A program made the translations under genes and the position numbers. Shown here piece by piece: positions 6,778-27,824 of a DNA stretch of 64,000 nt. Within the stretch, counting starts at the first letter, position 1, and every line of letters begins with the position of its first letter. Below the pieces are notes generated by a model that worked only from the letters and a program-made list of their open reading frames with translations, was not told the DNA's origin and searched no databases. The DNA lies in the NCBI GenBank assembly GCA_007376385.1, contig VMGC01000001.1, positions 128,001 through 192,000 of the forward strand. Direction: 5' to 3'. The stretch comes from Parcubacteria group bacterium Gr01-1014_8. GTDB lineage: Bacteria; Patescibacteriota; Minisyncoccia; Phycocordibacterales; UBA2100.

Positions 6778-6848
6778 CCCCTGGTAGCTCAATGGTAGAG
6801 CAGCTGCCTTTTAAGCAGTTGACGGAGGTCCGATTCCTCCCCGGGGGA
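6778..6848 (+). tRNA. tRNA-Lys, anticodon TTT.
   Basis: A hand-folded cloverleaf gives acceptor CCCCTGG/CCGGGGG, D-arm GCTC-AATGGTA-GAGC and anticodon stem-loop GCTGC-CTTTTAA-GCAGT. The T-arm is GGAGG-TCCGATT-CCTCC with discriminator A. No CCA is encoded. Confidence 0.85.
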
Positions 6849-7023
6849 AAGTTTTTTAAACTTCACACGGGAGAAGCGTGCAATGCACGCTTCGTGAAGA
6901 ATCGGACGCCGGAGCGATGTTTTGTCAGCAGACAAAACCGCGAGGCGGTGCCCAGACAAACTTTTGCGACGGCAAAAGTTTAGTCGCGGGAGATTCCTCC
7001 CCGGGGGAAAGTTTTTTAAACTT
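6849..7023 (+). repeat. tRNA-3'-linked conserved element, copy 1 (E1). It ends in a 32-nt duplicate of the tRNA-Lys T-loop-to-trailer sequence.
   Basis: GATTCCTCCCCGGGGGAAAGTTTTTTAAACTT occurs at 6832-6863 and again at 6992-7023. The intervening element carries core motifs identical to those at 21857-21944: ACGCCGGAGCGATGT at 6906-6920, ACCGCGAGGCGGTGCCCAGAC at 6937-6957 and AGTCGCGGGAGA at 6982-6993. Between the cores are hairpins that differ in sequence but retain pairing. Confidence 0.6.
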
Positions 7024-13224: not shown

Positions 13225-13299
13225 TGGTGCCCTCGGCAGGAATCGAACCTGCATTTCTTCCTTCGCAGGGAAGTGTCCTATCCATTGAACGACGAGAGC
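13225..13299 (-). tRNA. tRNA-Arg, anticodon GCG, with genomically encoded CCA.
   Basis: The reverse-complement fold gives acceptor GCTCTCG/CGAGGGC and D-arm GTTC-AATGGATA-GGAC. The anticodon stem-loop is CTTCC-CTGCGAA-GGAAG and the T-arm is GCAGG-TTCGATT-CCTGC. Discriminator A is followed by CCA. It is the only tRNA here with encoded CCA. Confidence 0.65.
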
Positions 13300-13985
13300 G
13301 GAGCGCCAGCAATCTTTTCCTGAATCGCGTACGCAAAGCCGAGTATCTCCTTTCTTATACTGCTGTCAAGGTAACAGATAAAACAGAGACCCATGAAATT
13401 CTGTCGGAATTTCCTCATCTTACTTCTCGGTTTGATCCAAATCTTGCCAGTTTGAGATAGCGGAATTTTTGTTAGTTTTGACCAGTAGTTCTTCGTCTTT
13501 TCTATATCGTGGTAGTGATGGACATGAATCCGCAATCGTAACCTTTTTTCGTCGATCGTGTAACACTTTCGGAGCAAAGCCATGTAAAGGAATATCATTT
13601 TAGGATCGGTGTTTGCGAAGCGGAGTCCCGAAACCTTGTTGTGTTTTGTCCCCTCCGCCCAATACAGCATCGCAAGAAGAGATTTCATATATGTCATATC
13701 TTTGTGCGTGATTAGTTTTGCCATTTCTTTTCCGCGCAAAACATAAACCTTGTCACGTTTTTCTTTTGCGGCTCGTAGAGAAGAGGCCGAGATTGTACGG
13801 GCACGTTTGAGATGTTCCAAGCGCAATGTTTCGGTAAATACTCCGGGGTATTTATGACCAAGCCATGTACACAATGTGCTCCTTGGTATCGACAGTTCTC
13901 TTTGAATTTGCAAATATGATTTTCCACTTCTGCGCAATTTTGCGGCAGTTTCTTTTACTGCTTCAGAATAAAAAGTACCACGCAT
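13278..13985 (-). CDS. HTH plus LAGLIDADG-like homing endonuclease family protein.
   Basis: An N-terminal HTH (GKSYLQIQRELSIPRSTLCTW) is present. A single LAGLIDADG-like motif (LLAMLYWAEGTKH) is present. The region is AT-rich. The 3' end overlaps tRNA-Arg (13225-13299) on the same strand. Confidence 0.5.
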   Translation of the reverse strand: MRGTFYSEAVKETAAKLRRSGKSYLQIQRELSIPRSTLCTWLGHKYPGVFTETLRLEHLKRARTISASSLRAAKEKRDKVYVLRGKEMAKLITHKDMTYMKSLLAMLYWAEGTKHNKVSGLRFANTDPKMIFLYMALLRKCYTIDEKRLRLRIHVHHYHDIEKTKNYWSKLTKIPLSQTGKIWIKPRSKMRKFRQNFMGLCFICYLDSSIRKEILGFAYAIQEKIAGAPLSSFNG

Positions 13986-21318: not shown

Positions 21319-21627
21319 ATGCCATACAAATATCGAAAAGATTTGTACGCTGCTCAAAAGAGGCATCGTATACGAGTACGAGAAAAACTGCTCGGATTTC
21401 TTAGTACGAAACAGTGCATCGATTGCGGCGAGAAAGATCCAATTGTTTTGGATTTTGATCATATTGATAGAGCGAGTAAATCCAGAAATGTTGCGGGATT
21501 TTTATCGGGGCATTGGTCTTGGGAGTCTGTTCTAACAGAGATTCGTAAATGCGAAATCAGATGCGCCAATTGTCACCGGCGAAAAACCTATCATCAATTC
21601 GGTTCTTTTGGTAGAACTATCAAGTAG
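21319..21627 (+). CDS. HNH homing endonuclease, small and free-standing.
   Basis: CIDCGEKD...LDFDHIDRASKSRN...CANCHRRK is the HNH zinc-finger nuclease motif. The region is AT-rich. The stop abuts tRNA-Arg at 21627. Confidence 0.75.
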   Translation: MPYKYRKDLYAAQKRHRIRVREKLLGFLSTKQCIDCGEKDPIVLDFDHIDRASKSRNVAGFLSGHWSWESVLTEIRKCEIRCANCHRRKTYHQFGSFGRTIK

Positions 21628-21720: not shown

Positions 21721-21793
21721 GGGCGGTTAGCTCAGTTGGTAGAGCAACCCCTTTACACGGGGAAGGTCACAGGTTCGAGTCCTGTATCGCCCA
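21721..21793 (+). tRNA. tRNA-Val, anticodon TAC.
   Basis: The acceptor is GGGCGGT/ATCGCCC and the D-arm is GCTC-AGTTGGTA-GAGC. The anticodon stem-loop is ACCCC-TTTACAC-GGGGA. The T-arm is ACAGG-TTCGAGT-CCTGT with discriminator A. Confidence 0.85.
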
Positions 21794-21960
21794 CAAAATA
21801 GTAAACTATTTTGTGGCGGTAAGTGCGCAAACTGATTTGCGCACGTCAGGACGAGAACGCCGGAGCGATGTCGCGCGAGGACGCGCGACCGCGAGGCGGT
21901 GCCCAGACCGAGGCGAGCGGCGGCGAGCGGAGAGTCGCGGGAGAGTCCTGTATCGCCCAC
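21794..21960 (+). repeat. tRNA-3'-linked conserved element, copy 2 (E2). It ends in an 18-nt duplicate of tRNA-Val positions 57-74.
   Basis: GAGTCCTGTATCGCCCAC occurs at 21777-21794 and again at 21943-21960. The element carries core motifs identical to E1: ACGCCGGAGCGATGT at 21857-21871, ACCGCGAGGCGGTGCCCAGAC at 21888-21908 and AGTCGCGGGAGA at 21933-21944. Confidence 0.6.
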
Positions 21961-22004
21961 TCTGGTTTGATAATGGTCCAGCGGTGTGTTACAGTCCTGG
22001 CCGT

Positions 22005-22451
22005 ATGGTTGCTAATAAAGTCGTTGTTTCTCCAGTCGACATGACCGCGCGAAAGGCGCTTGACGTGCGTCCGGGTGATACCGTGCGCGTGTTCCAAAAG
22101 ATAGAGGAGGAAAAGGGGAAGTACCGTCTTCAAGCGTTTGAAGGGTTGGTGTTGGCGCGAAAACACGGCACTGAAGCTGGCGCGACGTTCACTGTGCGAA
22201 AAGTGACAAGCGGTGTCGGTGTTGAAAAGATATTTCCGCTCTATTCTCCAATGATAGATAAAGTCGAGATAGTAAAGCGTGCTCGAGTGCGCCGTGCGAA
22301 GCTCTATTATATTCGAGACAAAGTTGCTCGCGAAGCGCGCCGACAACTTCGCCGCGCGAAAGTCGTGGTCCCGTTGCAAGGCGAAGTGGTTCTCGACGAT
22401 GCGGCCGAACCTGTCGCTGAAGAAGTTGGAACTCCAGAGAAAAGTGAGTAA
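22005..22451 (+). CDS. rplS: 50S ribosomal protein L19.
   Basis: VRPGDTVRVFQKIEEEKGKYRLQAFEGLVLARKHG...FTVRKVTSGVGVEKIFPLYSP is the L19 signature. The track ORF 21669..22451 has a spurious N-terminal extension across tRNA-Val. The real start is the ATG at 22005 (MVANKVVV). Confidence 0.85.
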   Translation: MVANKVVVSPVDMTARKALDVRPGDTVRVFQKIEEEKGKYRLQAFEGLVLARKHGTEAGATFTVRKVTSGVGVEKIFPLYSPMIDKVEIVKRARVRRAKLYYIRDKVAREARRQLRRAKVVVPLQGEVVLDDAAEPVAEEVGTPEKSE

Positions 22452-22521
22452 TCAGGGGGCCTCTTTTTATTTGTCCACAACTGGTAGACGCTATATACTT
22501 GAGTTATGTTATATTTGTGCG

Positions 22522-23199
22522 ATGGGGAAGCGAGGACCCAAGCCTGGATTCAAAATTACACGTCGTGTCTCAGAGAAATGGACGCCGGAATTAGCATATG
22601 CGATCGGGCTTCTTGCGACAGACGGTTGTCTTGCGCGGCACCAGTCGCTAATTGATCTGACGTCAAAAGATCAGGAGCAATTGAAGAATTTCTCAAAGTG
22701 TATTGGAATTCCACTTTTCATCGGCACGAAATTTGGTAGTCACCATAAGGGCGTATATTACAGAGTTCAATTTAAGAATCTCATCTTCTATAACTTTCTC
22801 CTCTCCGTTGGTCTGACGCCGGCAAAATCGAAAACGATGGGAGCGCTTGGGGTTCCGAAAGAATATTTCTGGGACTTTCTTCGCGGATCTTACGATGGTG
22901 ATGGATGTTCATATTCATATTGGGATCCACGATGGAAATCGAGTTTTATGTTTTACACGAGTTTTGTTTCCGCGAGTCGAGAGCATATTGATTGGTTGCA
23001 AAAAGAGATTTTTGCGCGGCTCAAAATCACTGGGCACATCACGCAGGCTAAAAGAAATATCTTGTACCAACTTAAGTACGCAAAAAGTGATTCCCTGAAG
23101 TTACTGAAAAAAATGTATCACTCGAGTAAAGTTATTTGTCTTTCGCGAAAAAGATTGAAAATAGAGCGAATTTTGAGTACAGTTAGCGAGAAGCTGTAA
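22522..23199 (+). CDS. LAGLIDADG homing endonuclease, double-motif and free-standing.
   Basis: Two LAGLIDADG motifs are present: YAIGLLATDGCL and FLRGSYDGDGCS. The region is AT-rich. The gene ends 10 nt before tRNA-Leu. Confidence 0.75.
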   Translation: MGKRGPKPGFKITRRVSEKWTPELAYAIGLLATDGCLARHQSLIDLTSKDQEQLKNFSKCIGIPLFIGTKFGSHHKGVYYRVQFKNLIFYNFLLSVGLTPAKSKTMGALGVPKEYFWDFLRGSYDGDGCSYSYWDPRWKSSFMFYTSFVSASREHIDWLQKEIFARLKITGHITQAKRNILYQLKYAKSDSLKLLKKMYHSSKVICLSRKRLKIERILSTVSEKL

Positions 23200-27326: not shown

Positions 27327-27824
27327 GTGGCTCTTCTGAACTGCATTGTATGTGACAAGGAATTCAAAAGAAAACCTTTTCTCATACGCCGCAGTGGAGG
27401 TAAATATTGCTCAAATACTTGCCATTATTCGGATGCCCGCACTGGTAAAAAGATTTCCTGCTCAACTTGCGGCAAAGAGGTCTACAGGACTCCACGCAGA
27501 CTTAAACTCTCAAAAAGTAAAACTTATTTTTGCAACAAATCCTGCCAAACGTTATGGCGGAATCAATACTTTGTTGGGCGGAGACATAAGAACTGGATCC
27601 ATGGACGTGCTGCGTATCGCACAGTGCTCGCTCGAATAGGCCGAGAGAAAATATGCGAATCGTGTAAGACAAAAGATACTCGTGTTCTTGCAATTCATCA
27701 TATTGATCGAGTAAGAACGAACATTGATCCAAGCAATCTGGTGTGGCTTTGCCATAATTGCCATTTCCTCCTTCATCATTATGATGTGGGACGAGAGCGT
27801 GGTTTACTGAGATCGCATTCTTGA
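27327..27824 (+). CDS. HNH homing endonuclease with N-terminal zinc ribbons, free-standing.
   Basis: CxxC pairs are present (CIVCDKEF, CSTCGKEV). The HNH core is CESCKTKDTRVLAIHHIDR...NLVWLCHNCH. The gene ends 4 nt before tRNA-His. Confidence 0.75.
   Translation: MALLNCIVCDKEFKRKPFLIRRSGGKYCSNTCHYSDARTGKKISCSTCGKEVYRTPRRLKLSKSKTYFCNKSCQTLWRNQYFVGRRHKNWIHGRAAYRTVLARIGREKICESCKTKDTRVLAIHHIDRVRTNIDPSNLVWLCHNCHFLLHHYDVGRERGLLRSHS

Follow-up and report, generated by a model that had tools for sequence, protein, structure and literature searches.

In the genome of Parcubacteria group bacterium Gr01-1014_8, we analysed a 64,000-nucleotide (nt) stretch of DNA (contig VMGC01000001.1, positions 128,001 to 192,000; hereafter the window), in which a complete tRNA-Val(tac) gene is followed by rplS, the gene for ribosomal protein L19. 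Directly 3' of the tRNA gene, at window positions 21795-21960, lies an element that we call E2, which ends with an exact 18-nt copy of the 3' end of that tRNA (GAGTCCTGTATCGCCCAC at 21943-21960, identical to 21777-21794); the rplS start codon at 22005 follows 44 nt past the copy. E2 is best read as one copy of an undescribed, gene-less structured-RNA element of about 150 bases that occurs 3' of tRNA genes in ultra-small Patescibacteria. A sister copy, E1, occupies 6849-7023 behind a complete tRNA-Lys gene (6778-6848; 70 bits with the Rfam tRNA model).

The two copies of the E2 repeat lie 166 nt apart with 148 nt between them, and the inserted unit measures 166 nt and consists of the body and a second copy of the tRNA segment that runs from T-loop position G57 to the 3' end. 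Since the unit carries this second copy, the host tRNA gene is left intact. The AT palindrome and the GC hairpin that the initial annotation had described in E2 are both present, at 21795-21812 and 21823-21844. The palindrome, together with the flanking tRNA 3' strand and the 5' strand of paired region P1a, can form a single long hairpin, and the computed fold of 21783-21822, in which a guide pairs with repeat copy 1, has an energy of -18.9 kcal/mol (z-score, z = -6.7). This guide consists of two segments, the 5' strands of P1a and P1b, of which the latter is complementary to T-loop positions 57-60 plus the T-stem 3' strand of the repeat and is followed by a junction GAA that is the complement of T54-T55-C56. 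The GC hairpin, hp1, emerges between the two segments of the guide, at the point that corresponds to the branching of the D, anticodon and variable arms in a tRNA, and a similar hairpin stands at the same place in most family members. Further downstream, core 1 (CGCCGGAGCGATG) is found at 21858-21870 in E2 and at 6907-6919 in E1, and a 20-mer core inside the P2/P3 region (CCGCGAGGCGGTGCCCAGAC) at 21889-21908 and 6938-6957 (Table 1).

Table 1. Features of E2 and its surroundings in the window, with the sister copy E1
Feature	Position	Strand	Basis
tRNA-Val(tac), complete and high-scoring; host gene of E2	21721..21794	+	ARAGORN; Rfam tRNA 68.2 bits
Direct repeat copy 1: 3' part of tRNA-Val, starting at T-loop G57 and covering the 3' strands of T-stem and acceptor, the discriminator and 1 nt more	21777..21794	+	sequence
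AT palindrome spacer, AAAATAGT-aa-ACTATTTT	21795..21812	+	sequence
P1a 5' strand, GTGGCGGTA; guide that can pair with the 3' acceptor strand in either copy of the repeat	21813..21821	+	minimum-free-energy (MFE) fold
hp1, GC hairpin, GTGCGCAAA-ctga-TTTGCGCAC	21823..21844	+	sequence, fold
P1b 5' strand (CAGGAC, then GA), followed by junction GAA	21847..21857	+	folds, family pair counts
P2 arm, CGCC/GGA/GCG/AU, hp2 (21870-21889), CGC/GA/GGCG; then junction GUG and P3 5' strand CCCAGAC	21858..21908	+	alignment, pair counts
hp3, hairpin with tandem G.A pairs (CGAG/CGAG type)	21909..21932	+	family pair counts
Core 3, AGTCGCGGGA; P3 3' strand (GUC..GGG) plus one junction nucleotide	21933..21942	+	alignment
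Direct repeat copy 2, GAGTCCTGTATCGCCCAC; 3' strand of closing helices P1b and P1a	21943..21960	+	sequence
Sigma-70-like promoter candidate for rplS, TTGATA-17-TACAGT with TG; outside the element	21967..21995	+	promoter scan
rplS (ribosomal protein L19), neighbour; outside the element	22005..22451	+	Pfam Ribosomal_L19, E = 6e-34; protein 100% identical to the L19 record of Gr01-1014_8
E1 with host tRNA-Lys(ttt)	6778..7023	+	R1 covariance model 123 bits, sequence

E1 and E2 had been proposed to be two copies of one tRNA-linked element, and their shared architecture and shared cores bear this out. The three cores are identical in the alignment of the two, and the 20-mer has two matches in the window, compared to 0.00 expected from shuffled sequence. 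As had also been claimed, the duplicated tRNA segment begins at T-loop position 57 in both, with repeats of 18 nt in E2 and 32 nt in E1; the E1 repeat (6832-6863, identical to 6992-7023) extends through the AT palindrome behind tRNA-Lys. Identity between E1 and E2 in the variable hairpins is only 0.43, and the closest relatives of each lie in other genomes: the best matches of their variable parts sit behind tRNA-Pro in locus L034 (0.86) and behind tRNA-Phe in L042 (0.82). Hairpin hp3 takes an A-U form in E1 and a G.A form in E2. A covariance model, R1, run over the window recovered no copy besides these two, so that two of the seven tRNAs in the window carry an element.

To collect the family, we used the exact 20-mer in a species-representative genome collection and found it in 47 loci (cited below by their L numbers), nearly all in metagenome-assembled genomes (MAGs) of Patescibacteria labelled as Paceibacteria, Nomura-, Yonath-, Taylor-, Niyogi- or Vogelbacteria, or as "Saccharibacteria" bins; one match (L006) is a chance match in GC-rich coding DNA. 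ARAGORN places a same-strand tRNA upstream of 40 of 49 copies, and in most tRNA-linked copies the 20-mer begins 57-121 nt past the tRNA end. Direct-repeat length ranges from 8 to 32 nt, and most repeats begin within the T-loop, 15-21 nt ahead of the tRNA end. The R1 model finds 61 solid copies in the collected loci, 51 of which can be assigned to an upstream tRNA, and 15 of the 18 tRNA isotypes present there carry a copy. Since the same architecture recurs in dozens of other genomes, the pattern lies far beyond chance. A further scan of metagenomes with the tRNA-Val 3' half gave 120 loci, most of them irrelevant because this sequence is common far beyond Patescibacteria, and yielded L148, L105 and L185.

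Occupancy can be dense. In L011 (4087-7971), all five tRNA genes of an 8-kb stretch are occupied (Arg-tcg, Gly-gcc, Pro-tgg, Arg-ccg and Gly-tcc), and copies sit between the tRNAs of a single operon in L024 and L041. L011 mixes two subtypes, A and B; several of its tRNA genes encode CCA, and one guide opens with TGG opposite CCA. In the subtype B copies (L105, L185 and the copy at 5880 in L011), the repeat and the closing helix draw on no more of the tRNA than its final 5-9 nt, together with trailer sequence. The invariant principle of the family is therefore the order guide, core and copy of the upstream tRNA end, and anchoring in the T-loop is specific to subtype A.

E1 and E2 fold into the same architecture (z = -4.8 and -3.8). 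From 5' to 3', the P1a 5' strand, hp1, the P1b 5' strand, GAA, the P2 arm with hp2 (CGCC/GGA/GCG, hp2, CGC/GA/GGCG), GUG, the P3 arm with hp3 (CCC-A-GAC, hp3, GUC-GM-GGG) and one junction nucleotide lead to the tRNA-derived 3' strand, which pairs with the P1b 5' strand through positions 57-65 and with the P1a 5' strand through 66-72. We wrote this structure by hand onto an alignment of 43 sequences and counted pairs. Standard pairs fill 86% of the cells, compared to 35-45% when partners are slid, and two-sided changes occur in 265 cells, compared to 88 +/- 9 in shuffled alignments, a value that none of 500 shuffles reached. Covariation extends to 24 of 40 pairs. In P1b (helix 1), double changes occur at seven of nine pairs, and copies pair with their own partners at 7.13 of nine positions compared to 5.9 when partners are permuted, with no permutation reaching the observed value; for P1a, the signal is modest, at 6.1 of eight pairs compared to 5.71. 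P2 and P3 are invariant in the seed set and covary in divergent copies, where P2 appears as CGCC/GGCG, UGGC/GCCA or CGGC/GCCG and P3 as CCC..GAC/GUC..GGG or GGUC../..GACC, depending on subtype.

The two variable hairpins differ in kind as well as in sequence. Both hp2 and hp3 (21870-21889 and 21909-21932 in E2; 6919-6938 and 6958-6981 in E1) come either as A-U stems or as stems of tandem, sheared-type G.A pairs (CGAG/CGAG), and hp3 (helix 4) has an apical GACG loop in most copies. Double changes occur at 10 of the 16 hp3 pairs, which hold 82 G.A or A.G cells; tandem G.A cells number 128 in hp2 and hp3 together, and G.U is commoner than A.C. This excess of G.U over A.C, with the tandem G.A cells, identifies the tRNA-sense strand as the one under structural selection, and an RNA is a simpler reading of the selected fold than folded single-stranded DNA. 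Together, the counts strongly support a three-way junction of the P2/hp2 and P3/hp3 arms that is closed by pairing of the guide with the duplicated tRNA 3' fragment.

The closed helix resembles an acceptor/T-stem minihelix. In the E1 and E2 folds, acceptor-like and T-stem-like helices are stacked, share an unbroken 3' strand and are followed by a discriminator, and many copies show the same bipartite pairing; the element has no T-loop, since base pairing takes in positions 57-60 and the helix leads into the junction. Across the 56/57 bond, the guide complements tRNA positions 54-72 without interruption (the complement of 57-65, then GAA). An alternative minimum-energy fold of the whole tRNA-Val plus E2 transcript places the guide on copy 1 and the 5' acceptor strand of the tRNA on copy 2, which suggests that the repeat copies are interchangeable partners. 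Since the guide pairs with copy 1 in MFE folds that include the upstream tRNA, such folds are uninformative for the P1 counts.

Several other structural ideas were tried and set aside. A pseudoknot between the GACG loop of hp3 and a CGUC linker showed no association (counts 8/13/5/15). The idea that the guide is a copy of the tRNA 5' strands gave a mixed picture at the informative non-Watson-Crick positions, where L002, L008 and L042 keep the complement and E2 and L023 keep the wobble, and it was not adopted. Inspection by eye gave no support for reading the junction or the GGA/GA loop as a hammerhead, hairpin or k-turn motif, and the junction strands GAA/GUG/A do not fit a hammerhead core.

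Sites with and without the element both exist. In L051 and L052, whose L19 proteins are 82-83% identical to that of the window, tRNA-Val is followed by 83 nt and 53 nt, respectively, and then by rplS, with no element; the tRNA-Val 3' half of L051 is identical to that of the window, whereas that of L052 differs in the T-stem and acceptor 3' strands. The same junction in L050 and L049 holds an element of a different core subtype plus a degenerate copy of the E2 type (tandem behind one tRNA, 2324-2623 in L050), and in L148 a third subtype sits behind a tRNA-Val with an identical 30-nt 3' half. Tandem, nested or decayed copies were seen in L002, L032, L003, L042, L047, L050 and L037. In L002 (3553-3885), the first of two tandem elements behind one tRNA is decayed and its 3' end mismatches the local tRNA-Glu; L032 has a mutated core and a 13-nt insert in the repeat; and L037 has a remnant tRNA end upstream. 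Copies behind different tRNAs of one genome can share hairpins and spacers, with an identity of 1.0 in L046 and of 0.7 between L043 and L013.

Further observations come from individual loci. In L037 (6330-6400, minus strand), L039 (4360-4390) and L045, a degenerate tRNA 3' fragment lies upstream of the copy and no tRNA is detectable. In L100 (990-1040) and L151, the 3' end of tRNA-Val is repeated almost exactly in the 16 nt that come next (GTTCTGTATCGCCCAC), which may be the scar of element loss or of another attachment-site (att) event. In L004 (700-3900, minus strand), where the element sits behind tRNA-Leu, a segment of about 3 kb with an IS30-type transposase (HTH_38 plus rve) and other open reading frames (ORFs) is inserted exactly after the GAA junction, and a module of about 48 nt comprising guide, hp1 and P1b flanks the segment on both sides. 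In the KR5_bin-306 genome, the motif AAAAATGTTCGAACTT recurs beside copies, and contigs break inside the element.

E2 had also been considered as a small protein gene and as a leader or attenuator of rplS. ORFs traverse both copies and share the peptides AGAM and PRGGAQT, with SREDAR (E2) or FCQQTK (E1) between them, and protein coding had been judged unlikely on these grounds. This judgement holds in the family: of 43 copies, 26 have a stop codon between the cores in the PRGGAQT frame, and indels cause frameshifts, with frame-shifting core spacings in 11 and 13 of the 43. The variable stretches, which had been called palindromic at the DNA level, are compensatory hairpins by the family pair counts. 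A regulatory role had the short distance to rplS in its favour, but the tRNA-Val/rplS site is empty in the relatives L051 and L052, and family members precede unrelated genes, tRNAs or genes on the opposite strand. In addition, our scan, which covered the window, found TTGATA-17-TACAGT with an upstream TG at 21967-21995, past E2, so the rplS promoter likely lies downstream of the element. By eye and without alignment, related sequences (GTTTGATA/GATTTGATA ... GTTAAAGT/GGTAAAGT) precede rplS in L051, L052 and L048, and the stretch after the E2 repeat (GGTTTGATA...GTGTTACAGTCC) resembles the rplS upstream region of L051 and L052; by our reading of these empty-site relatives, the sequence that follows copy 2 (GGTTTGATA...) would be the native rplS upstream region. 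We therefore consider it very improbable that E2 encodes a small protein or regulates rplS in cis as a leader or attenuator. Absence from close relatives with the same junction had been named as evidence against the element; the absence is real, but it speaks only against regulation specific to this locus, and the element itself stands. As a separate observation, the promoter-like site ends 9 nt before the ATG, and rplS mRNA may be leaderless or nearly so.

What, then, is the element? The reading that we favour, at a probability of roughly 45% and thus tentatively, is a selfish, intron-like structured-RNA element of tRNA genes that spreads horizontally. On this reading, an ORF-less insertion element of about 150 nt would colonise the 3' ends of tRNA genes in Paceibacteria-type Patescibacteria, spreading both between and within genomes. 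The tRNA sequence at both flanks would make the insertion harmless, and it could serve as portable homology for insertion or as the site of precise loss by recombination between the repeats. The RNA would be made by read-through from the tRNA and might be trimmed by tRNA-processing enzymes (RNase P, RNase Z or CCA enzymes), a proposal based on a closing stem that mimics the tRNA acceptor/T-stem, with hp1 in place of the tRNA body. The invariant junction core, whether a ribozyme or a platform for binding, would be needed for propagating or processing the element itself and not for rplS or any other neighbour.

A number of points weigh against this reading. Because an exact 20-mer served to pick the loci, the conservation of the core is overstated, and P1a is clearly paired (at least seven of eight pairs) in only 12 of 39 copies, about a third. 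In many copies, a hairpin that resembles a terminator separates the tRNA from P1a and a second one follows copy 2; because of the first, expression may be low. Scans of neighbouring domains and ORFs linked no recombinase, reverse transcriptase or nuclease to the element, and a move to a new tRNA needs rewriting of up to about 16 guide nt. Alternatively, the copies behind different tRNAs could be of old origin, with gene conversion maintaining their similarity and with presence and absence arising from repeat-mediated loss only. Finally, an invariant 20-mer across many species and the full occupancy of the five-tRNA cluster would also fit a function for the host.

Such a function is the substance of the strongest alternative, in which the element yields a host-beneficial, tRNA-like companion RNA that acts as a decoy, a chaperone or a quality-control or repair partner of its cognate tRNA. 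It would be a stable small RNA, freed by RNase P at the P1a 5' end and by RNase Z or the CCA-adding enzyme past the discriminator of copy 2. The closing helix shares its 3' strand with acceptor plus T-stem, hp1 branches at the position of the tRNA body, the guide fits the cognate tRNA and the junction core is invariant across many species, all of which this explanation would accommodate, as it would the copies within tRNA operons and at all five tRNAs of L011. The distribution, on the other hand, is patchy: L051 and L052, one of which has an identical tRNA-Val 3' half, are empty here, only two of the seven window tRNAs carry a copy, and decayed copies are common. The RNA would also lack the T-loop and elbow that RNase P and most tRNA enzymes use, and terminator-like hairpins often precede it. 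We regard a companion RNA as possible but clearly less probable than a selfish element.

Two further explanations were weighed. The element might represent a hitherto unknown class of small catalytic RNA with a guide, which reads tRNA positions 54-72, aligns them as substrate and cleaves, ligates or exchanges at the 56/57 bond, thereby attaching to or exchanging the tRNA 3' segment; the arrangement of core followed by G57 would then be what this reaction yields, and it would either have become fixed in DNA or serve splicing or exchange of the 3' half. The contiguity of the guide over this bond points that way, as do the fixed left border of the repeat at G57 with a variable right border (8 to 32 nt), junction nucleotides that are invariant next to variable hairpins, and several core subtypes that keep the same ...TCGAA, core, GA.TCC junction logic. 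The transcript can, moreover, offer either repeat copy to the same guide, and two interchangeable pairing states are what a ribozyme for splicing or 3'-half exchange would need. However, no catalytic motif is recognised in the core of about 95 nt, which also resembles no Rfam ribozyme, subtype B repeats are anchored at the last 5-9 nt of the tRNA and not at G57, and fixation in DNA needs a reverse transcriptase, of which none was seen; the reading is purely inferential, and we think it unlikely. More doubtful again is a miniature integrative element or att remnant, mobilised in trans by a tyrosine integrase acting at the T-loop, with the repeats as attL and attR and the fold as an incidental feature. 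The T-loop is reportedly a classic sublocation for integrase targeting, the repeat runs from there to or past the tRNA 3' end and restores the gene, filled and empty sites both exist, and the tandem tRNA-Val ends of L100 and L151, with nothing between them, could be excision scars. Yet no integrase lies in or near the copies, one integrase lineage would not generate copies behind 15 isotypes in which the tRNA end matches perfectly and the internal complement matches too, and the compensatory changes, the G.U excess and the tandem G.A pairs reflect selection on a single-strand fold.

Searches for a known counterpart of the element returned little. At the gathering threshold of Rfam 15, the window search gave no match to E2 other than tRNA, and at E <= 10, searches with E2 and the L050 variant (351 nt and 401 nt) found only tRNA and noise. 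Rfam 15 gave no match to hammerhead, twister, twister-sister, pistol, hatchet, hepatitis delta virus (HDV)-like or hairpin ribozymes, and no match to Intron_gpI even at E <= 10. A limited keyword and string search of the literature, by topic and by core strings, found no description, and the only related work concerned group I introns of the anticodon loop. An exact 18-mer had no match in viral contigs; a gapped two-core pattern had 15, all of them chance matches in GC-rich coding DNA, and was discarded. All-against-all clustering of ORFs in the 47 loci revealed no conserved neighbour, only spurious element ORFs and syntenic genes; YraN-like, CCA-adding enzyme and LAGLIDADG-like genes recur, and the recurrence of the YraN and CCA-adding enzyme genes reflects synteny. 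The marks of miniature inverted-repeat transposable elements and insertion sequences, conserved terminal inverted repeats and a target duplication of fixed length, are absent from the family, in which terminal complementarity varies from copy to copy with the tRNA and repeats range from 8 to 32 nt.

Aside from the element, the window contains four small ORFs with homing-endonuclease-like domains, each ending immediately before a same-strand tRNA gene: 21319-21627 (+), 22279-23199 (+; the true start is probably after 22451), 27327-27824 (+) and 13278-13985 (-). Their matches are a weak HNH domain before tRNA-Arg, LAGLIDADG_3 before tRNA-Leu, TRASH plus HNH_3 before tRNA-His and a LAGLIDADG-like homolog of ORFs in L040 and L020 before tRNA-Arg(gcg). 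Homologs of these ORFs adjoin tRNAs elsewhere too, one of them (L048, L053) beside an inverted tRNA-Val.

If our reading is true, Patescibacteria hold a widespread, previously unrecorded class of structured RNA that is coupled to tRNA genes both physically and structurally. Its unusual traits are a verbatim tRNA 3' fragment that serves as a strand of the closing helix, a guide that is rewritten for each tRNA, and the lack of a protein gene, and they raise the questions of how a protein-less element retargets a guide of about 16 nt and spreads, and of whether the junction is a ribozyme or a platform for a protein or tRNA enzyme. Should the ribozyme reading hold, these minimal-genome bacteria would harbour an RNA-programmed, protein-independent mobile element or a means of exchanging tRNA 3' halves. 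In practical terms, copies of the element give rise to spurious ORFs, cause assemblies to break at tRNA loci and can mislead the annotation of tRNAs and att sites in MAGs of the candidate phyla radiation.

Within the limits of our literature search, the element fails a defining feature of tRNA-targeting integrative elements, of group I introns and of tRNA-like RNAs, and we therefore rate it provisionally as outside the known kinds. Among the systems compared are the ORF-less group I introns in the anticodon loop of Patescibacteria tRNA genes (PMC13011429): both are protein-less structured RNAs in tRNA genes of the same phylum with a patchy distribution, and both have an internal guide that pairs with flanking exon sequence. 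Here, however, the tRNA is uninterrupted, with a complete copy upstream, the site is the T-loop and 3' end rather than the anticodon loop, and the core of about 95 nt has no group I match in Rfam. Elements that tyrosine integrases place in tRNA genes share with ours the insertion at the tRNA 3' end, a direct repeat that starts in the T-loop, a tRNA that stays functional and the coexistence of filled and empty sites. In our case, the body is only about 130-165 bp and has neither an integrase nor another ORF, one core family covers 15 isotypes rather than one or a few targets, and the repeat doubles as a strand of a conserved RNA helix with an internal guide. The primer-binding site of retroviral and long terminal repeat elements is likewise an internal complement, of about 18 nt, to the 3'-terminal part of a tRNA from the T-loop on, whereas the complement described here is split by hp1, does not clearly cover CCA, pairs in cis with a genomic copy and comes without a reverse transcriptase. 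The HDV-like 'theta' ribozymes of gut phages sit directly 3' of tRNAs and are thus also small, co-oriented structured RNAs just downstream of a tRNA; our element differs in the spacer or terminator after the tRNA, the duplication of the tRNA end, the guide, the lack of a ribozyme match and the lack of copies in viral contigs. As for tRNA-like RNAs and RNase P mimics (external guide sequences, the tRNA-like domain of transfer-messenger RNA, and mascRNA), they too have a coaxial helix resembling the acceptor/T-stem and a discriminator after the 3' strand. The element, by comparison, has no T-loop or elbow, the pairing of positions 57-60 extends its helix into a three-way junction, and its 3' strand is a verbatim copy of the neighbouring tRNA.

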